Below, in pieces: positions 1-9,756 of a DNA stretch of 10,282 nt; the first letter of the stretch is position 1, and every line of letters starts with the position of its first letter. A program made the translations under genes and the position numbers. Origin of the DNA: a virus (lineage: Duplodnaviria; Heunggongvirae; Uroviricota; Caudoviricetes); the IMG/VR virus record IMGVR_UViG_2778261676_000001. One strand, 5' to 3'. The notes under the pieces were generated by a model, which was given only the letters and a program-made list of their open reading frames with translations, was not told where the DNA came from and ran no database searches.

Positions 1-1175
1 ATATAGTTAAATGCGATGTTTTTGACGGTGTTTTCCGCGTTACCAGCAGCGTTAACGGTGATGGTGTGTCCATGTGAACCAATCGCAACGGAGTGCGTAT
101 GAGCACCAATACCGACAGTATGCGCGTGTGCACCTGCGCTTGCAGCAGTGCCGGACAGTGAGTGGGTATGTGCGCCAGCAGATGATGTTGCATAGTTTTG
201 ATTATGCACAACAGACAATCTTGTTGATGCACTACCAGCACCGGAGTTAGCACTAGCCGTGTTCACGTTGGCTAGTGAGTGTGTGTGTGCTCCAGCCGAG
301 TTTGTAGAGCCGCTCACACTGTGTGTATGTGCCCCGGTGTTATTCGTGGATTTAGTGCCGTAATCAAACGACGATGTGGTTTTCGTCCCCAAATCTGTAC
401 TGGATGCGCTGGCGCTGTGGGTATGCGATTTAATGCCGTCCTGTTCCTGAGACAATACGGCCCGACCACTGGCAGGTTTGCCCTTAATCGTCCAGCCACG
501 CATATCAGGGATCACGCCTGACGGATAAGCGGCTGCAAGTTTCGGGTAAGCAGATTTGTCAAAAGCCTGCCCCTGCATCAGGGCATAACCAGACGGAACG
601 GTATCTGATGGCCACGGGATTGGTGCGCCGACTGGGTAGCTTTCTGGTGGAAGATTTTTCGAGGTATAAACTTCTGCCCAGTCTTCCTCAAAACCATAAC
701 CGTCTCTTGAAGAACGGTAGAACAGACCACCATTTCTGTAATGCGCCTTCATCTGCAGGGTCCGGCAACTTCCGACTCCGGTATAGAAGTTAACCAGAAT
801 ATAGCTGTCGCCAGAGCGGGTGACATTGTAAGCGCCTGATTCGGCATTCCATGGAACGCCACCATCCGCATCGGCATATGTATCCGTTGCCCTTCTGGCA
901 AAAGCAGCCACATGCGCGGCGGTTAAAGTAATATCTTTGGAACCATCAAACTCAACACCAGAAACCAGTCTTGGCGTTTGCAGCTTTGTTGCTGTTAATG
1001 CATTACCGTTCAGACTTGCGGACAGTTTGGTTCCAATAACCAGTTCGCCGGTTGCGTTATCAATAGCAAACGGTCTTAATGTATTCCAGCCACCATAAAC
1101 ATCACCTTGATTGGTAAGCAGCAGGTAAGTTTTAGCGCCATCATTACGCCATAATGCACCATACTCCCCACCTAT
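1..1175 (-). pseudogene. stf: Side tail fiber protein (Stf / T4 gp37-like) C-terminal portion; 5-prime-truncated remnant, partial at window edge
   Basis: Minus-strand frame is open from 1175 through position 1 with no stop. Hand translation reads [212 protein letters not shown]... then tandem GAHTHS-type His-x-His repeats ...[19 protein letters not shown], which I recognise as the conserved C-terminal region of lambdoid side tail fibers. The frame is closed upstream by TGA at 1176-1178 and has no in-frame ATG near its 5-prime end, so the N-terminal majority of a normal Stf is absent. It is missing from the ORF track because it has no start and runs off the window. Confidence 0.7.
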
Positions 1176-2388
1176 TCATTCGAATCTGATTACCACCACG
1201 CGCTACAATTTCGTCTGTGGCAAAAAGTTTTTTGCACGACAAGTTATCGTTAACGATTAACGAATGAGACTCATAAAAACCACGCCCACTCTTAAAATCA
1301 AGGATAACGTCCGCCGCGATACATTCAGTCGCCGGATTTGTTGCCCCAAACTTATAGGTCGTATCATTAACAACGAGATCAGCACCAGGTGCGGATATTG
1401 ACAGGCCATCTTCAATAAACGCAAAAACAGGGAAAGCAGCGCCATCAACATAGAACACAGAGCGCAAATCATCGCCCTTATTACTCATCATTATTGAGTG
1501 AATGGCTCGTTCATTGTTTTGATATTGCCAGAACATGCCATAAGCATAACGCCCCCTGTCAGTCCAGCCACCAGGCATAACAAATCCGTTAAACTCGCAG
1601 TTATTCATCGGATCGCCTGCGGTTCGCGTTGCTGTGGTGATAATGACTCTTGATGCCAGTTCGCTTACGTAGGTTCCGGAATCCAGATACAGCTCGGTCA
1701 TTCCGCCGCTGTTTTTCTGCGTCTGTTTCTGCCCTAACTGGACAGCACCGATCGTCATAAACAATTCACCACAGCGACCGAGATTCGTGTACGTATTCAC
1801 ATCCTCGTTAATGCGCCCCATGAATGAGAACGGTCGATCAACCGAACAGATAAAGCTGTTCATTGCCTTGCGTTTCACCCACGAAGCATGGCCGCCATTG
1901 TCACCAAGAAAATCCCCTCCCTGCGACATAGCGATGGAAAGAGCAGGTATTGATTCGTAGTACGCCAGCATTTCAGAAAGGATCGCATCCAGTTTCCTTA
2001 TCGGAAAATAGGCCTGGTCATAGTTGCGATCCACCCGAAACTGGAACTCGTGATAATCATCATCGAGCTGAATGAAGTATTTACACCCGACCAGTTTTGC
2101 CTGGTCGAAACAGGCATTACGGGCGTAAAAAATTGAGCGGCGGTCACAGAAATTATCGGCTTCGTCAAAACGACTGGCGATATCGGCTTTGGAAAACACC
2201 AGCACCTGTTCACCAAATTCAGCCATGTACTGATGCCGTGTCTTATCTTCATCATCAACAACGATAAAAATTTTCCCGGTATAGCCAGCACGACGCAACG
2301 TCCGGTAAGTCAGAACTTTGTCCGGTCGCCCGTGAGTCAGAATAAAGGCGCAAAAATCATCACGCATATTCCTCCTCCTCACCACCAT
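1144..2388 (-). CDS. Uncharacterised protein with N-terminal GT-A fold (family-2-like) glycosyltransferase motifs and ~270-aa C-terminal region of unknown function
   Basis: 414-aa ORF from ATG 2388; alternative ATG at 2367 (407 aa) overlaps the upstream gene stop as ATGCGTGA and is preceded by GAGGAGGAGG. Motif series [11 protein letters not shown] / [11 protein letters not shown] / [27 protein letters not shown] matches the beta1, beta2 and ARN..G.Y..LD.DD (DxD) signature of GT-A glycosyltransferases. No Walker A and no methyltransferase motifs. Stop at 1144-1146 lies 30 nt inside the point where the stf frame opens. Confidence 0.85.
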
Positions 2389-3151
2389 GCATGATCTCCA
2401 CCATGCGCTGCGTCATCCGGACAAATCCATTTTCAATAGCCTGCTGATAATCAATGATCACCAGCGCCGACTCCTCGAAAAAACACTGAATTTCAGCGGG
2501 GGCGTGAGCGTAATAGTCCGCAATTCTGCTGAAATTAAACACCGTGTGACGTTCTGCCGCACACAGGAGGAATTTCTCAATATCAGGCTCAAGGGACGCC
2601 GAACGTATCCGGCTGATCAGCTCCTGAGTTTTCGTATCGTCGTACAGTTCACTGATATCCGGTTTACCGCCCGACGGCTCATAAACAGGCGTATCAATTT
2701 TCGTCGTATACGGCTCCTCCTCATTTCCTGTACCGGGCAAAACATCCGTCAACAGTTCATCAATTTCTGTCGGGATGAAGCCTGTCAGGGAGACATCAAA
2801 ATCAGCATTGATTAGGTCCGACAGCTCCATCCGCAACAGATCTTCATCCCAGCCAGCATTCATCGGCAGGCGATTATCTGCCAGGCGGTACGCCTTTTTC
2901 TGCTCATCCGTCAGGCCAGACAGAACAATGACCGGAACAGAATCCATTTTGAGCATTTCAGCCGCCATAACACGACCGTGACCCGCAATAATTTCGCCCT
3001 TTTCGTCAATCAGCACCGGATTAGTCCAGCCGAATTGCTTAATACTTTCTACCAGTTGTGCCACCTGCTCAGTACTGTGCGTCCTGGCGTTGTGCGCATA
3101 CGGTGACAATTCTTGTAATGGGCGATAGACTATCTTTAATTTCTCGCTCAT
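2360..3151 (-). CDS. ParB/Srx-fold (ParB-like nuclease domain) protein with acidic C-terminal tail
   Basis: 263-aa ORF, ATG at 3149-3151 preceded by AAGG. N-terminal region IVYRPLQELSPYAHNARTHSTEQVAQLVESIKQFGWTNPVLIDEKGEIIAGHGRVMAAEMLKMDSVPVIVL has the ParB N-domain pattern including the GxxR arginine motif. C-terminus is acidic (GGEEEEYA). Translationally coupled to the downstream glycosyltransferase-like gene. Confidence 0.85.
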   Translation of the reverse strand: MSEKLKIVYRPLQELSPYAHNARTHSTEQVAQLVESIKQFGWTNPVLIDEKGEIIAGHGRVMAAEMLKMDSVPVIVLSGLTDEQKKAYRLADNRLPMNAGWDEDLLRMELSDLINADFDVSLTGFIPTEIDELLTDVLPGTGNEEEPYTTKIDTPVYEPSGGKPDISELYDDTKTQELISRIRSASLEPDIEKFLLCAAERHTVFNFSRIADYYAHAPAEIQCFFEESALVIIDYQQAIENGFVRMTQRMVEIMHGGEEEEYA

Positions 3152-3167: not shown

Positions 3168-3202
3168 AATAAAACGCACCCCAGCAGCCAGTGCTACTGG
3201 GG
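3168..3202 (-). terminator. Possible weak terminator/attenuator between trkG and the ParB-like gene
   Basis: Imperfect 9-bp stem CCCCAGCAG / CTACTGGGG (one mismatch) with a 6-nt loop, followed on the minus strand by GCGTTTTATT, ending about 20 nt before the ParB-like start codon. Confidence 0.25.
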
Positions 3203-3288: not shown

Positions 3289-4764
3289 TTAGGAGCGCCA
3301 AAAAAAACCTGAAAACAATATAATAACAGGATAAATTTCAAGGCGACCAAGAATCATAGCTATGCACATTAAACATTTTGCAATGTCATTAAGCACTCCG
3401 AATGACGATGCAGTAGCCCCAAAACCTAATCCCATATTATTAATACATGCAGCCACTGTTGCAAATGATGTAAGAAAATCATATCCCATACCATTTAACA
3501 CCAGTATAAAAAACACCGTGAAGAGAGTATAAAGAAAAAAGAAACTCCATACAGACCTCATTACACGATCTGTAACTATCTTCCCTCCTACATTTACACT
3601 CAACAACGCTCTGGGATGAGAAAGCTGATTTATCTCGTGTTTGCTTTGTTTGAAAAGTATAAGAAATCGAAGTGACTTAATTCCACCACAAGTTGAACCT
3701 ATACATCCCCCAAAGAAACTTGACAACAGCAAAAACACTATCGTGTGCGTGGGCCAACTTGCATAATCCTGCGTAGCTAAACCATTATCAGTGAGCATGG
3801 AGCTGGCAAGAAAAAACGAATGAATAAAACTTCCATGCAAGTCATACATACCTATATGCCAGACCTGGAAAGAGGTAACAATGATCACCCCTAAGGCTAT
3901 TAACAGAAAGAAACGAAGTTCAATATCTCTGATTAAAGGTTTTATCGTTTTCCTGCTAATAACAATATACCAAAGAGTGAAGTTGAAAGCCGATAGCAGG
4001 GAAAAAGAACCAGCCACCAGCTCAACCAAATAGTTATTAAAATATCCGATACTCTCGCTATGAGTTGAGAAACCACCAAGCGAAACTGTGGAAATCCCGT
4101 GACAAATAGCATCAAACAAAGGCATTCCTGCAAGTCTATAACAGACAATACAAGCAATACCTAATAAAGAATAAGTTATCCACAGTGTCCGTGACGTATC
4201 GGCCAGGCGGGGAGTGAGTTTGTCATCCTTAAATGGCCCCGGCATTTCTGACTGATAAAGCTTTGCACCACCAATACCCAATAATGGCAATACAGCAACC
4301 GCCAGAACAATAACTCCTAAACCACCTATAAAATTTAACTGTGACCGATAGTACAAATATGCCCGAGGTAATGAACTAACATCATCAATTACAGTTGCTC
4401 CTGTTGTTGTTATTCCAGAAACCCCTTCAAACAGAGCATCAATGAACGTTAAATTAAGTTCTGAGTCAATCCATAAAGGGAATGCACTAATAACAGAAAA
4501 CAAAATCCAAAACATTACAATTATAATAAACCCATCACGGGTACGTAATTGAATGCCAGATTTCTTAGTTGTATACCACGCTCCGCCACCAATGCAAAAA
4601 AATATAACGAAAGTTATAAAGAAAACAAACAGGCTTTTTTCTTTATAAAACAATGCTACAACCATTGGTGGCAACATTGAAAGACTATAGAGCCAAACCA
4701 GGAACCCACACATATGAGTAACAACTCTTACATGAGATGTATTCATATCTAAATATTCTTTCAA
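3289..4764 (-). CDS. trkG: TrkH-family potassium uptake protein, prophage-borne (TrkG-like)
   Basis: 491-aa polytopic membrane ORF with TrkH/KtrB-type pore-loop motifs (FEGVSGITTTGATV, ICHGISTVSLGGFSTHSESIGYF, GGCIGSTCGGIK). Markedly AT-rich relative to flanking phage genes, and sits directly after Rz as in Rac-type prophages. ORF-track start is a TTG at 4764 with AAGGTGG 6 nt upstream; an in-frame ATG at 4746 (MNTSHVRVV..., 485 aa) is the alternative start. Confidence 0.85.
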   Translation of the reverse strand: MKEYLDMNTSHVRVVTHMCGFLVWLYSLSMLPPMVVALFYKEKSLFVFFITFVIFFCIGGGAWYTTKKSGIQLRTRDGFIIIVMFWILFSVISAFPLWIDSELNLTFIDALFEGVSGITTTGATVIDDVSSLPRAYLYYRSQLNFIGGLGVIVLAVAVLPLLGIGGAKLYQSEMPGPFKDDKLTPRLADTSRTLWITYSLLGIACIVCYRLAGMPLFDAICHGISTVSLGGFSTHSESIGYFNNYLVELVAGSFSLLSAFNFTLWYIVISRKTIKPLIRDIELRFFLLIALGVIIVTSFQVWHIGMYDLHGSFIHSFFLASSMLTDNGLATQDYASWPTHTIVFLLLSSFFGGCIGSTCGGIKSLRFLILFKQSKHEINQLSHPRALLSVNVGGKIVTDRVMRSVWSFFFLYTLFTVFFILVLNGMGYDFLTSFATVAACINNMGLGFGATASSFGVLNDIAKCLMCIAMILGRLEIYPVIILFSGFFWRS

Positions 4765-6308: not shown

Positions 6309-6704
6309 CTAACCTCGCATGTCAAAGCCAGATTTCTGAAAATCTCTGTAGACTTCCGGATTGTTGAAGGCCGGAAATTTGGCTTTATGAGCTGCGGACT
6401 TTATCGCTTCGCAATAGGCTTTATCACCGTTACTGGTAGATATTTTTAACGCCGTGCCATCCTGAGAGAATTCCATATGCAACCTGCATTTTTTCCCTTT
6501 CCAGTTATGCGGCTCATCAAGTTTGGCATTAATTGCAGCTCTGATTCCCCGCGCTTGCGCCCCCCATTCATCCTGATCATCCCAGCGTCCTGAACTGCAA
6601 CTACCTGTAGCAGTAGTTTTGTGGCAATCTGAAGGGTGTAAAGGTGTGCATCCCGCAACAAAACCGACCCAAAAAGTCAACATAACGATTTTCTTTAATC
6701 CCAC
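6309..6704 (-). CDS. Lipoprotein with TolA C-terminal (domain III)-like mature domain
   Basis: 131 aa. GTG start at 6704 with GAGGAG 6 nt upstream. Signal peptide with lipobox (FVAGC). C-terminal part WKGKKCRLHMEFSQDGTALKISTSNGDKAYCEAIKSAAHKAKFPAFNNPEVYRDFQKSGFD follows the TolA domain III pattern (GK.C.L...G.L..I....D..C.A...A...AK.P..P..VY..F). Paralog of the next gene. Confidence 0.8.
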   Translation of the reverse strand: MGLKKIVMLTFWVGFVAGCTPLHPSDCHKTTATGSCSSGRWDDQDEWGAQARGIRAAINAKLDEPHNWKGKKCRLHMEFSQDGTALKISTSNGDKAYCEAIKSAAHKAKFPAFNNPEVYRDFQKSGFDMRG

Positions 6705-6854: not shown

Positions 6855-7283
6855 TCAGGGTTTACAATCCAGCACCCCATTTTGAAATACTTTATATACT
6901 TCCGGCGAAGGGGGGGCAGGTATATCAGCATTCTTTATCGCATTCATCGCTTCACGACATAAATCGAGGTCTCCACTTTCTCTTTTAACCTCCAGTAGAA
7001 GGCCATTCGGAGCCATATGCATTCTCAGTGTACACTCTTTTCCTGAATACTTACTCGCATCCCCGAACTGTTTTTCGATGGCGCTCTTGATTTGATGGGC
7101 ATACAGACGGATATCCTCACTAACATCAGAAGTACGTTCAGATGAACTCACATACTGTGTCTCTATTGCTTTATCGGAGTAATATGATGTACGGTCATGA
7201 TAATTTGTCGATACAGCATCAGTGCACCCGATAATAATCCCACTAATAATCAACGTAAGAATTGATGCGCTACGAAAACCCAT
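6855..7283 (-). CDS. Lipoprotein with TolA C-terminal (domain III)-like mature domain
   Basis: 142 aa. ATG at 7283 with GAGGA upstream. Lipobox IIGC. C-terminal 85 aa YAHQIKSAIEKQFGDASKYSGKECTLRMHMAPNGLLLEVKRESGDLDLCREAMNAIKNADIPAPPSPEVYKVFQNGVLDCKP align closely with the E. coli TolA C-terminus as I recall it (YAGQIKSAIESKFYDASSYAGKTCTLRIKLAPDGMLLDIKPEGGDPALCQAALAAAKLAKIPKPPSQAVYEVFKNAPLDFKP). Confidence 0.85.
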   Translation of the reverse strand: MGFRSASILTLIISGIIIGCTDAVSTNYHDRTSYYSDKAIETQYVSSSERTSDVSEDIRLYAHQIKSAIEKQFGDASKYSGKECTLRMHMAPNGLLLEVKRESGDLDLCREAMNAIKNADIPAPPSPEVYKVFQNGVLDCKP

Positions 7284-7873
7284 TTTTCCTCACATATGTC
7301 ATATAGTAAAGGATTATATATACCGTTGTTTTGGACGCTCAAACAGCGAATCAGATCAAATAAAACGCACATTTGTTAACATTTACACAAAGTCTGCGTG
7401 GGATATTCTGAAAGAATATCCATAATGTGGAGAGAATCTATTGAAGTGCATGGTGCCGGGTGCCTCCCGGTGAACAAAATGTTCGTGATACCTGTCGGCG
7501 ACAGAAAAGGTTAATGGTATCACCCCACCGCACAGGGGGATTCACCATGCAGGAGTTTTCTTAGCAAACTCACTGCGCGCCCGGCAACTCCCAACCACAT
7601 AAAATGCGGAGTTTGTGGTATTTATGCATATAACTCGCAGGAATTATCTTAAAAAACTGATGTCGATCCGGATTAAAAAGAAGCAGGTCATCATCAGATG
7701 ACTGGAAAAAAGGAAAACAAAAAATACTCATCATACAGTTTTGATTGCAGGGATGAGCCTGCTATGCACAATATGCAGAATATAAGCAAGATAAAAATAT
7801 GCAGGCATATTATTTCGGATTTTGTTATTAACACAACCTTTTTAATAATCATTTGGCATACAATAAACCAGCC

Positions 7874-9157: not shown

Positions 9158-9756
9158 TACGCAAACTCCAGTAGTTGTGCGGCCACATTTTCAACTTCCT
9201 CCTGAGAGGAGAATTTACGGAACAGAATCCAGTTCCACAGCACATTCAGTACAGATTTATAAACCTGCTGAAACTCGACTTCGTCCATATTCGCAAAAGC
9301 GATGGATTTTGCCCGACGCCCACGGCTACCGTCCGGATAAATATGCTCGGTGTAAAATCCGGCCTGAATGGTTACCCACTCGCGGAAAGCCTCAAACGAC
9401 TTTAGCAACGCCGTATCCCGGGTTCTACGAGTCGCAACGGTGTTAAGGTATTGCTCTGCGGCATCACTCAGGGCTGGCGTGTGTTCCCGACCAACTGATT
9501 CGCACAGGTAATCAACGAAACCAGACAGCAGTTCTCGTTCGCGAGGCGTGATCGCCCCACCGACCGGAGTCCAGTAATCGAATCCCAGTTGCAGGAGTTT
9601 GAAAAAACGCTTGTGGAATGCGTAGTTACGCACACGCTTAAAGTCTGCGTGTATCCACTCACCTATTTTGATTTGATGCAGAAAATCGCAACTCTCCGGC
9701 GTCGCCGGGAGAAGTAAACCAGAAGAAGTTTGTTTGACCAGTTGTATATGCGCCAT
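9157..9756 (-). CDS. Conserved lambdoid nin-region protein (DUF1367-like, ~200 aa)
   Basis: 199-aa ORF, ATG at 9754-9756 with GAGAG upstream; coupled to the ybcO-like gene. Size and neighbourhood (directly upstream of DUF1364 and Q) match the DUF1367 family from memory; the family call is not verified by search. Confidence 0.6.
   Translation of the reverse strand: MAHIQLVKQTSSGLLLPATPESCDFLHQIKIGEWIHADFKRVRNYAFHKRFFKLLQLGFDYWTPVGGAITPRERELLSGFVDYLCESVGREHTPALSDAAEQYLNTVATRRTRDTALLKSFEAFREWVTIQAGFYTEHIYPDGSRGRRAKSIAFANMDEVEFQQVYKSVLNVLWNWILFRKFSSQEEVENVAAQLLEFA

Follow-up and report, generated by a model that had tools for sequence, protein, structure and literature searches.

The 10,282-nucleotide stretch analysed here (hereafter the window) carries on its minus strand what is left of a conserved two-gene phage module, in which a ParB-like protein is encoded directly ahead of a glycosyltransferase of the TAGT family. 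Judged from sequence, the chances appear evenly balanced that this module is a ParB-activated, late-expressed DNA glycosyltransferase. In the window, which comes from a defective Rac-like E. coli prophage, the module is dead: only ParB is intact, and this remnant is useful mainly as a pointer. Of 753 phage genomes, 288 had a TAGT/GT-A gene that stood alone, with no function assigned (PMC13216743), and the same held for about 65% of the glycosyltransferase contigs of a 2023 preprint (10.1101/2023.12.21.572611). One large, highly conserved TAGT subfamily comes instead as a translationally coupled pair with an apparently dedicated ParB. This would extend the principle of ParB as an activator of DNA-modifying enzymes from dioxygenases to glycosyltransferases, and the Rac-like prophages of ordinary E. 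coli strains offer an easy experimental system. No functional study of ynaK, of a "GREB1-related" protein or of a ParB-TAGT pair was found in the literature; the NCBI pipeline PGAP labels the E. coli TAGT protein "GREB1-related".

The following features were delimited in the window:

3..1175, minus strand: remaining stfR (aa 725-1128), identified by blastx, out of frame with the chimeric ORF and reaching the contig end
1144..1666, minus strand: portion of the chimeric ORF that comes from stfR, with StfR aa ~561-724 in frame (blastx against E7 StfR)
1666..1668, minus strand: deletion junction, from blastn to E7 and LR-03 and a three-way junction alignment
1667..2367, minus strand: 5' 701 nt of the TAGT-family GT-A gene ("GREB1-related protein"), codons 1-234 of 310
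2360..2380, minus strand: translational-coupling region, with GAGGAGGAGGAA at 2380-2369, the TAGT ATG at 2367-2365 and the ParB TGA at 2362-2360
2360..3151, minus strand: ParB-like gene "ynaK", 263 aa, intact, with Pfam, PHROG and NCBIfam matches
3179..3202, minus strand: hairpin resembling an intrinsic terminator, belonging to the trkG moron and located 28 nt ahead of the ParB start (promoter/terminator scan)

The ParB-like protein

The first-pass annotation had recognised a ParB/Srx-type protein in ORF 2360..3151, and the assignment is confirmed by PF02195 (ParB N-terminal domain), which matched aa 23-90 with 29.3 bits (cut-off 26.3), and by phrog_620 (1e-90); the motif EIIAGHGRVMAAEM and the acidic C-terminal tail GGEEEEYA are both present as described. 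With the ParB of the complete E7 prophage it shares 100% identity. In the AF2 model, a ParB/Srx N-terminal domain of predicted NTP-binding type made of strands and helices (aa 1 to ~100) is followed by two helices (aa 103-134), a disordered acidic linker (pLDDT <50 at 136-157) and a helical, module-specific C-terminal domain (aa ~166-255) predicted with low confidence. The AF2 models were built on shallow alignments (15 and 17 sequences; pLDDT 61 and 64), and their C-terminal halves are unreliable. The linker includes a conserved motif, YTxKIxxPxYEP (aa 148-159), that was delineated from 45 partner ParBs; its residues Y148, T149 and Y157 are invariant, as is Y170. The same 45 proteins conserve N21-x-R23, S36, G57-x-x-R60 and D92-N93, and relative to the reference motifs (Box I N/Q-x-R, Box II GERR, Box III N) the Glu of Box II is replaced in module ParBs (GHGR/GNxR).

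The best structures retrieved by Foldseek were CDP/CTP-bound ParB, Noc, PadC and KorB, and PDB profiles of Noc, Spo0J and ParB matched aa 23-93. The profile of canonical partition ParB, TIGR00180, reached 38 bits, below its cut-off of 58.45 and over the N-terminal domain only. No helix-turn-helix was matched in Pfam or PDB profiles, and no parA was found in the E7 prophage or in the other pair neighbourhoods scanned. By its profile matches, the protein is predicted to be of the NTP-binding type, has no predicted DNA-binding domain, and is not a canonical partition ParB. It is strongly acidic (pI 4.6, net charge about -22), and the median pI of module ParBs is likewise 4.6. Among the closest relatives of its N-terminal domain are phage ParB-methyltransferase fusions (phrog_498, 9e-51); similarly, the PADLOC MTase_II model matched at 2e-38, over the N-terminal ParB domain of the model only.

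The end of this gene overlaps the start of the TAGT gene by 8 nt (ATGCGTGA), at the positions given in the first pass, with GAGGAGGAGGAA just upstream. An overlap of 8 or 11 nt is kept in 50 of 61 related ParB-TAGT loci, and this arrangement is not due to chance.

The truncated glycosyltransferase

The second gene had been said to open as a GT-A glycosyltransferase, which is borne out by PF20691 (TAGT): the profile matched the window ORF with E=4.6e-34 and 118.6 bits (cut-off 27.5) over positions 4-205 of 205, against 121.5 bits for the intact TAGT (P0002). In addition, phrog_842 matched the ORF at 6e-88. A Foldseek search with the TAGT model, in which only residues 1-150 are confidently modelled, returned SpsA and other GT-A enzymes, and no match came from searching PDB sequence profiles with TAGT. 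These profiles place the protein, by predicted fold, among GT-A enzymes and in the family of the T2/T6 DNA glucosyltransferase. Residues R14, DDD102-104 and NED187-189 are at least 90% conserved in 58 TAGT homologues, and the truncated protein retains R14, the D102-D104 DxD motif and N187-E188-D189.

The window ORF is identical to the intact 310-aa TAGT up to residue 234 only. Beyond this point a conserved basic C-terminal element (aa 235-283, charge +8) is lost, and with it 11 of the 70 positions showing conservation of 90% or more (K235, F237, V240, P244, S245, R258, H260, H261, W265, I272 and K279); the median pI of TAGT proteins is 8.8. The locus had been presented as an intact version of what is left in E. 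coli K-12, which applies to ParB and not to TAGT. As for the K-12 Rac prophage itself, ynaK is indeed cut there, at nt 254, but ydaY is a tail-module gene and not a remnant of the glycosyltransferase.

Pairing and distribution of the module

Of 62 loci drawn from many phyla, 60 have ParB directly upstream of TAGT; the remaining two are cut by contig ends. The survey of co-occurrence beyond prophages suggested in the first pass recovered the pair in Lactobacillus phage c5, in the archaeal virus HHTV-2 and in a Porphyromonas phage. An intact, strictly conserved pair is carried by about one sixth of complete E. coli genomes, according to an estimate based on 60 sampled rows. TAGT adjoins all 33 viral ParBs that have the module C-terminal domain (16 are near-identical E. 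coli copies, so that about 17 loci are independent, and in 4 of the 33 one nucleotide-sugar-type gene sits between ParB and TAGT), whereas it adjoins only 1 of 47 ParBs related by the N-terminal domain alone. Across 58 loci, ParB and TAGT are the sole conserved genes, and the identity of TAGT between phyla amounts to 40-60%. Adjacency, the conserved start/stop overlap and the TAGT-linked C-terminal domain together support the view that the ParB-like protein would be a dedicated partner of TAGT.

ParB-TAGT fusion proteins were absent from the 150 best representatives; the long proteins of that set consist of TAGT joined to a second TAGT, to a SAM methyltransferase or to a sulfotransferase, or of TAGT with an unassigned N-terminal extension, and sugar-nucleotide enzymes are encoded nearby. 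An apparent exception to the pairing was noticed in the Vibrio jumbo phage pv27, where a 139-aa ORF that is not recognisably ParB precedes TAGT.

Position at the head of the late operon

The pair opens the late/packaging operon: replication genes lie upstream of it, and terminase genes, which belong to at least five Pfam types, usually follow it closely. In phage c5, ParB-TAGT is the first gene pair after cos. Such near-invariable adjacency, together with the recurrent break/deletion hotspot within the pair in Rac-like prophages, could suggest a packaging accessory that aids terminase at pac/cos, its glycosyltransferase fold being non-catalytic or acting on DNA ends. This is very unlikely, since conservation exceeds 90% at the catalytic residues (R, DDD and NED) and TAGT is linked or fused to dedicated sugar-nucleotide and glycan-tailoring enzymes. 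Moreover, lambda is one of many related phages that package their DNA without a ParB-TAGT pair.

The first-pass annotation regarded the pair as prophage cargo next to the trkG moron. The inserted element is in fact trkG with its own terminator and not the ParB-TAGT pair, which forms the conserved head of the operon; between the trkG terminator and ParB, the promoter scan detected no sigma-70 promoter better than chance. A defence, superinfection-exclusion or anti-restriction cargo (moron) serving the lysogen would be consistent with the proximity of trkG in Rac-like prophages and with the presence of the ParB_N fold in defence nucleases such as GmrSD (PMC12373910). We nevertheless consider it most improbable. 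PADLOC-DB 2.0 held no match to TAGT and matched ParB to a methyltransferase N-terminus only, so that the proposed defence system corresponds to no known system in that database. The pair has a terminator upstream and no promoter of its own was found; it occupies the same pre-terminase position in strictly lytic-style and archaeal virus genomes; and decayed prophages lose it along with their structural genes, whereas a gene beneficial to the lysogen would be retained.

Comparison with known systems

The closest precedent is provided by the ParB proteins that activate phage thymine dioxygenases of the 5mYOX176/ParB176 type (O'Toole et al., PNAS 2026, PMC13229309). Like these, the module ParB is a phage ParB homologue encoded beside a post-replicative DNA-modifying enzyme, putatively so in the case of TAGT. 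Both combine a CTPase-fold N-terminal domain, a short helical segment, a disordered linker (roughly 50 aa in the 5mYOX activators; PMC13229309) and a C-terminal domain, with no DNA-binding domain, and have the ParBs of M. xanthus and C. crescentus as nearest structures. The cognate-pair specificity of the 5mYOX system is mirrored by duplicated ParB-TAGT units at three loci (L028, L057 and L064). In the 5mYOX system, the ParB residues equivalent to CTP-binding ones were dispensable (PMC13229309), which counts against the function proposed below for the module. The two systems differ in that the partner here is a glycosyltransferase and not a 2OG/Fe dioxygenase, which is absent: no 5mYOX dioxygenase (TET_JBP) was seen adjacent to a module ParB, the neighbour being TAGT in the 60 of 62 loci mentioned above. 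Furthermore, the C-terminal domain and the YTxKIxxPxYEP motif belong to TAGT-linked ParBs only.

The most similar N-terminal domain is that of the ParB-N6/N4 DNA methyltransferase fusions, which also share a similar prophage niche (Kaljevic et al. 2025, PMC12704722). Unlike in these fusions, the enzyme of the module is separate and a glycosyltransferase, and ParB has its own C-terminal domain and no fused catalytic domain.

The TAGT (TET-associated glycosyltransferase) family was reportedly defined by Iyer et al. in 2013. The T2/T6 beta-glucosyl-HMC-alpha-glucosyltransferase and the kinetoplastid JGT share with the module enzyme the Pfam family PF20691, the GT-A fold and the R...DDD...ED motif, which is that of phage DNA GT-A enzymes (bioRxiv 10.1101/2023.12.21.572611). 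The T6 enzyme scored 37.2 bits against PF20691 (cut-off 27.5). It was reached neither by hhalign of the TAGT alignment nor by the 58-sequence subfamily HMM, so that the link to this characterised enzyme is drawn from Pfam/PHROG profiles only. T-even enzymes differ from the module in having no ParB partner, in lacking the extra conserved basic C-terminal element of module TAGTs, and in using glucosyl-hmC supplied by a dedicated pathway, whereas no hmC/hmU pathway was found with the module.

Another relative is GREB1, an animal member of the TAGT family that O-GlcNAcylates ER-alpha (PMC7968844). It differs from the module enzyme by its length (1,949 aa), its cytoplasmic location, its protein substrate and the absence of a ParB partner.

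Proposed function

A role in DNA modification is, by analogy with the 2026 precedent of a ParB activating a phage DNA-modifying enzyme (PMC13229309), probably the best-supported reading of the module. The first-pass suggestion of a DNA-targeted modification module is strengthened by the TAGT family and the dedicated ParB partner, and loses its defence or cargo variant. ParB and TAGT would be made together as concatemeric DNA nears packaging, and ParB would bind TAGT through the module-specific C-terminal domain. The ParB-CTPase-fold N-terminal domain may then activate TAGT or hold it on double-stranded DNA, as in the 5mYOX system, and TAGT would move a sugar from a nucleotide-sugar onto DNA. 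Some phages might subsequently extend, methylate or sulfate this sugar. The packaged genome would thereby be shielded from the nucleases of the next host, which we infer to be an anti-restriction role.

The annotation of the complete E7 prophage (47 kb) contains no enzyme that could supply a hydroxyl acceptor, be it TET/JBP, dCMP/dUMP hydroxymethylase or another, and the unannotated ORFs of this prophage gave no 2OG-oxygenase or thymidylate-synthase match. Likewise, neither TET/JBP nor hydroxymethylase appeared within three genes on either side of the pair at 58 loci, for which each scan covered the 25 most frequent Pfam families and may have passed over single occurrences, and no acceptor-making enzyme was found in three further neighbourhoods (L071-L073). 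Consequently, DNA glycosylation by the pair would require either an acceptor without precedent or an enzyme that escaped recognition.

The latter case corresponds to a classical second-step TAGT acting on 5-hydroxymethyl-pyrimidines or on a first sugar, whose maker would be encoded elsewhere or be unrecognisable by current profiles. Every DNA enzyme of the family characterised so far acts on a hydroxyl group, which is carried by hmC, by hmU or by a sugar (PMC13216743; PMC7968844), and TET/JBP annotation is missing from thousands of 5mYOX-like contigs (PMC13229309). This explanation is quite unlikely, however, given that the complete E7 prophage contains no candidate maker and that ParB and TAGT alone are conserved across the 58 loci.

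The former case is a self-sufficient pair that would glycosylate ordinary DNA without hydroxymethyl groups, ParB being the obligatory activator on double-stranded DNA. Such activity, which we regard as doubtful, would attach the sugar directly, by N- or O-glycosylation, either to the backbone or to a base that is standard or Dam/Dcm-methylated, a chemistry not yet described. If canonical DNA were the acceptor, the modification would be of a new kind, and a self-sufficient pair of this sort would be present in roughly one sixth of E. coli genomes as well as in viruses that infect many bacterial phyla and haloarchaea.

Alternatively, TAGT could modify a protein, as GREB1 does with ER-alpha (PMC7968844), and the membership of this O-GlcNAc transferase in the family counts against DNA glycosylation. 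ParB would then be an adaptor or the substrate, and the candidate targets are proteins of the host, proteins involved in packaging or present in the virion, and ParB's own Tyr/Thr-rich linker. The missing source of hydroxymethyl-pyrimidines beside the pair, its contact with packaging genes and the invariant Y148, T149, Y157 and Y170 of ParB are in line with protein glycosylation. We find it rather unlikely. The neighbouring terminase, portal and capsid genes come from unrelated families while TAGT keeps its 40-60% identity across phyla, which argues for a universal acceptor over a phage-specific protein. In addition, the ParB-CTPase fold and its nearest relatives, namely the methyltransferase fusions and the 5mYOX activators, are DNA-directed (PMC13229309), and the basic conserved C-terminal element of TAGT suits nucleic-acid binding.

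The deletion in the window

Compared with the intact E7 prophage, about 22.7 kb between the terminase and the middle of stfR are absent from the window. At the junction, TAGT sequence ending in CCTACGT is joined to stfR, (GT)AAGCGAACTGG, with a 2-nt GT microhomology. A microhomology-mediated deletion removed TAGT codons 235-310 along with the genes for terminase, head and tail, and fused codon 234 to stfR. The downstream ORF had been read as a single protein of ~407 aa, of which ~270 aa could not be placed; it is TAGT through residue 234 and stfR from 1667 leftward, and the fusion accounts for the unplaceable part. A derivation of the window from the LR-03 arrangement through a second deletion was considered and rejected on account of a 2-nt difference between the left crossover points. 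The deletion endpoint coincides with the recurrent hotspot inside the pair; a search there for a long palindrome or repeat yielded nothing beyond a palindrome of 8 nt and a single imperfect direct repeat of 21 nt. The chimeric ORF ends after a frameshift near 1176, at a stop at 1146-1144. Its aa 230-390 match tail-fibre PHROGs, and the stfR part is 99% identical at the DNA level to the tail fibre genes of phages Kati and mEp332.

Organization of the window

The window, 10,282 bases long, comprises the complete contig NOMU01000037.1 from the E. coli draft assembly GCA_002518735.1. It contains the right-hand portion of a defective Rac-like prophage, with every gene on the minus strand. The gene order runs from DUF1367, DUF1364 and DUF1133 (Q-region) through two TolA-C-terminal-domain genes, holin and lysozyme to Rz/Rz1, the trkG moron, the ParB-like gene, a chimeric ORF and the 3' part of stfR.

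Features around the gene pair
3289-4764, minus strand: trkG potassium-transporter moron, flanked by lysis cassette and ParB gene
3179-3202, minus strand: strong terminator hairpin of trkG
3151-2360, minus strand: ParB-like gene, 263 aa
2367-1144, minus strand: chimeric ORF

What the first-pass annotation had observed of the pair was partly confirmed, and its interpretation is partly supported. The 263-aa protein has the ParB N-terminal domain (PF02195, 29.3 bits against a cut-off of 26.3; phrog_620, 1e-90) and both its GHGR motif and its tail GGEEEEYA. In the coupling region, GAGGAGGAGGAA (2380-2369) precedes the downstream ATG (2367-2365) and the stop codon of ParB (2362-2360). The downstream protein is, as had been proposed, a GT-A enzyme; it matches the whole TAGT profile (PF20691, E=4.6e-34), as well as phrog_842 'beta-glucosyl-HMC-alpha-glucosyltransferase' (6e-88); PF20691 contains the T2/T6 enzyme (PMC13216743).

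The pair had also been regarded as cargo beside trkG, a view that has to be reversed: no promoter was found between the trkG terminator (3202-3179) and ParB, so the pair, having none of its own, belongs to the late operon, and the inserted cargo is instead trkG. Defence cargo of the lysogen is the least probable of the readings considered here, and PADLOC returned no match for TAGT. The trkG moron and its own terminator interrupt the late operon.

A dead copy in the window and intact copies in E. coli

The glycosyltransferase had been considered a possible intact version; it is truncated after residue 234 and fused to StfR. By megablast, homology to Rac trkG-ynaK-GT DNA ends at window 1667; beyond that point the matches are tail fibre genes of phages, at 99% DNA identity. 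Residues 1-234 are identical to the 310-aa protein of E7, an E. coli strain with a complete Rac-like prophage (PGAP, the NCBI annotation pipeline, names it 'GREB1-related protein'), and the sequences are unrelated beyond. In a three-way junction alignment, ...CCTACGT is joined to stfR (GT)AAGCGAACTGG with a 2-nt microhomology. StfR residues 561-724 follow in frame up to a frameshift near window 1176 (StfR aa 724/725), which leads to the ORF end at 1144, and StfR 725-1128 continues out of frame. Compared with E7, about 22.7 kb are missing, with a 69-aa ORF, the small and large terminase subunits, portal, head, tail, J, lom and half of stfR. The resulting 407-aa chimera (P0015) was found on six contigs of independent samples and is therefore not an assembly artefact; its exact junction occurs in none of the complete E. 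coli genomes of the collection.

The window ParB does not differ from that of E7 (100% identity). Of 70 TAGT positions with at least 90% conservation in 58 homologues, the truncation removed 11, all of them in a C-terminal element (residues 235-283) of net charge +8, and with these positions lost the enzyme is very probably inactive. The window holds a dead copy of the module. In the related strain LR-03, TAGT is joined to a longer stfR remnant at a nearly identical site, only 2 nt beyond that of the window.

The ParB and TAGT DNA matched 1,584 records, and the complete pair was present in 33 of 60 evenly spaced rows of these, a sample from which we estimate roughly one in six complete E. coli genomes. 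Besides E7, strains S42, D9 and 64.1 have the complete pair. The suggestion that K-12 keeps only ynaK and ydaY remnants holds for ynaK, which is reduced to its first 254 nt, a stub of 85 codons, and fused to ydaY, but not for ydaY, which is no glycosyltransferase remnant since in E7 it sits among tail genes, between those for tail tube and tape measure.

Conservation of the pair and of its position

Scanning the TAGT alignment against one genome per species yielded 62 loci (39-99% identity), drawn among others from Enterobacteria, Bacteroidota, Clostridia, Veillonella, Planctomycetota, Acidobacteriota, Saccharibacteria and Kiritimatiellae. At 60 of the 62, the gene directly upstream, on the same strand, is a homologue of the window ParB, and at the remaining two the contig end falls at the TAGT start. 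The TAGT start and ParB stop overlap by exactly 8 nt in 24 of 61 loci and by 11 nt in 26. The pair forms ORF1/ORF2 of Lactobacillus phage c5, directly after cos, and gp21/gp22 of the haloarchaeal virus HHTV-2, and a Porphyromonas phage has the order resolvase-ParB-TAGT-TerS-TerL. ParB and TAGT are the only families common to the loci, some of which carry two units (ParB-TAGT-ParB-TAGT and similar). Upstream are replication and recombination genes; the genes downstream encode large terminase subunits, which fall into at least five Pfam types, as well as small terminases and portals. Such neighbours would suit a packaging accessory, a role that we hold to be very unlikely.

Among isolated phages there is one apparent exception to the pairing, the Vibrio jumbo phage pv27 (locus L067, 4459-5888), whose TAGT belongs to the subfamily (44% identity) and is preceded by a 139-aa ORF without a recognisable ParB domain. 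The Virgibacillus sp. CBA3643 'plasmid' pCBA3643-01 (L020; 49,973 bp) carries the pair followed by a terminase and is probably the genome of a phage-plasmid or of an unintegrated phage.

Anatomy of the ParB partner

In the AF2 model of ParB, the ParB N-terminal domain is followed by two helices and, after a disordered stretch (136-165), by a helical C-terminal domain modelled with low confidence; by structure, the closest proteins are CTP/CDP-bound ParB, Noc, PadC and KorB. Neither a helix-turn-helix match in the protein nor a ParA partner was found. Common to 45 partners are N21-x-R23, S36, G57-x-x-R60, D92-N93 and W101-D102 in the N-terminal domain, the linker motif Y148-T-x-K-I-x-x-P-x-Y-E-P...ELYD and the C-terminal motif FLxxAAxRHxVFNxxxIAxYY...SALVIID. 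The partners are uniformly acidic (median pI 4.6, net charge about -22).

A scan of viral contigs with ParB separated two groups. Proteins with the full C-terminal domain had TAGT adjacent at 33 of 33 viral loci (about 17 of them independent of E. coli), four with an inserted gene; for relatives sharing only the N-terminal domain the figure was 1 of 47, the others being 370-510-aa fusions or proteins of about 190 aa. The N-terminal domain itself is nearest to the N-terminus of ParB-methyltransferase fusions. The C-terminal domain, the linker motif or both would thus be the TAGT-specific part.

Accessory genes and proposed function

The gene inserted between ParB and TAGT at four viral loci encodes about 318 aa.

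Inserted histidine-phosphatase/cytidylyltransferase-like gene
L101, 2942-3895
L103, 1419-2387
L104, 4770-5729
L107, 4734-5690

By its motifs, the protein resembles a histidine phosphatase in the N-terminal half (RHGQTYWN) and a cytidylyltransferase in the C-terminal half (HSGH), and it may supply a sugar or polyol donor. Natural fusions join TAGT to SAM methyltransferases (P0249, P0254, P0279), to a sulfotransferase (P0285) or to a second TAGT (P0265, P0267); four other TAGTs (P0266, P0271, P0293, P0296) bear an N-terminal extension of 180-270 aa with no assigned domain. Sugar-nucleotide enzymes occur sporadically near the pair. Together with the conservation of the pair, the inserted gene, fusions and neighbouring enzymes point to some acceptor bearing a glycan that is first built, then tailored.

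Our literature search found no study on the ParB-TAGT pair. 'Solitary' TAGTs were reported in 288 of 753 phage genomes with no defined function (PMC13216743), and on about 65% of phage glycosyltransferase contigs neither 5mYOX nor ThyS is a neighbour (bioRxiv 10.1101/2023.12.21.572611). Among the thymine dioxygenases of phages, one subclass requires a cognate ParB on double-stranded DNA; in this ParB a linker connects the N- and C-terminal domains, and a DNA-binding domain is absent (PMC13229309). In prophages, ParB-CTPase folds are often fused to methyltransferases (PMC12704722), and Iyer et al. (2013), as quoted in PMC8256090, proposed a role for ParB in directing modification enzymes while DNA is packaged.

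The best explanation is that the intact module pairs ParB with a glycosyltransferase that would modify DNA and that no precursor enzyme accompanies. More specifically, to a ParB-activated DNA glycosyltransferase module we give about an even chance: both proteins would be produced as late expression begins, ParB would form a complex with TAGT and activate it, and concatemeric DNA, the presumed sugar acceptor, would be glycosylated ahead of packaging, with a putative anti-restriction benefit. Glycosylation of a protein is unlikely, despite the precedent of GREB1, a TAGT-family member that glycosylates a protein (PMC7968844). Dependence on an unrecognised hydroxymethylase, which would provide the hydroxyl acceptor, seems quite improbable: no TET/JBP or hydroxymethylase turned up in the E7 prophage, in three further loci (L071-L073) or among the 25 commonest Pfam families that each scan listed for the three genes on either side of the pair at 58 loci. 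The ParB-TAGT module is widespread and directly testable in E. coli.

Recurrent deletion hotspots

Many different E. coli chimeras retain TAGT residues 1-231 to 1-234, followed by sequence of a minor head protein, an I-like tail protein, J, Stf or Tfa, and in many more it is ParB residues 1-165 (end ...GGKPD) that are kept.

Deletion hotspots (L001, E7 locus)
Window ~1667-1680, codons 231-234, L001 10625-10637: TAGT hotspot, 13 nt (GGATTCCGGAACCTACGTTAAAAG)
Window ~2657, codon 165, L001 9646: ParB hotspot

Among about 23 clusters of truncated TAGT, 12-13 end within the 13-nt hotspot. The six junctions that were sequenced are separate events with 1-5 nt of microhomology, their left ends at L001 10625-10637, or at 9646 in ParB, and their right ends 4.4-24.5 kb downstream. 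No long palindrome accounting for the hotspot was found; one possible cause is cutting by terminase at a pac-type site, about 420 nt upstream of terS, another a replication pause site.

The lom gene is also among the downstream endpoints. A 21-nt direct repeat of 81% identity adjoins both hotspots (L001 9618-9638 and 10657-10677), encoding YEPSGGK in ParB and YAPSCVK in TAGT, and chimera P0221 apparently recombined inside it.

Other elements of the window

6855-7283, minus strand, and 6309-6704, minus strand: two small TolA C-terminal-domain lipoprotein-like genes (PGAP names; Pfam PF06519)
7394-7580, minus strand: full-length match to the Rfam sRNA family STnc100

The STnc100 match (86.6 bits against a gathering score of 47) sits in an AT-rich, ORF-poor region between the Q-like gene and the TolA-like genes. 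The latter, placed between the antiterminator region and the holin gene, are possible morons mimicking TolA domain III.
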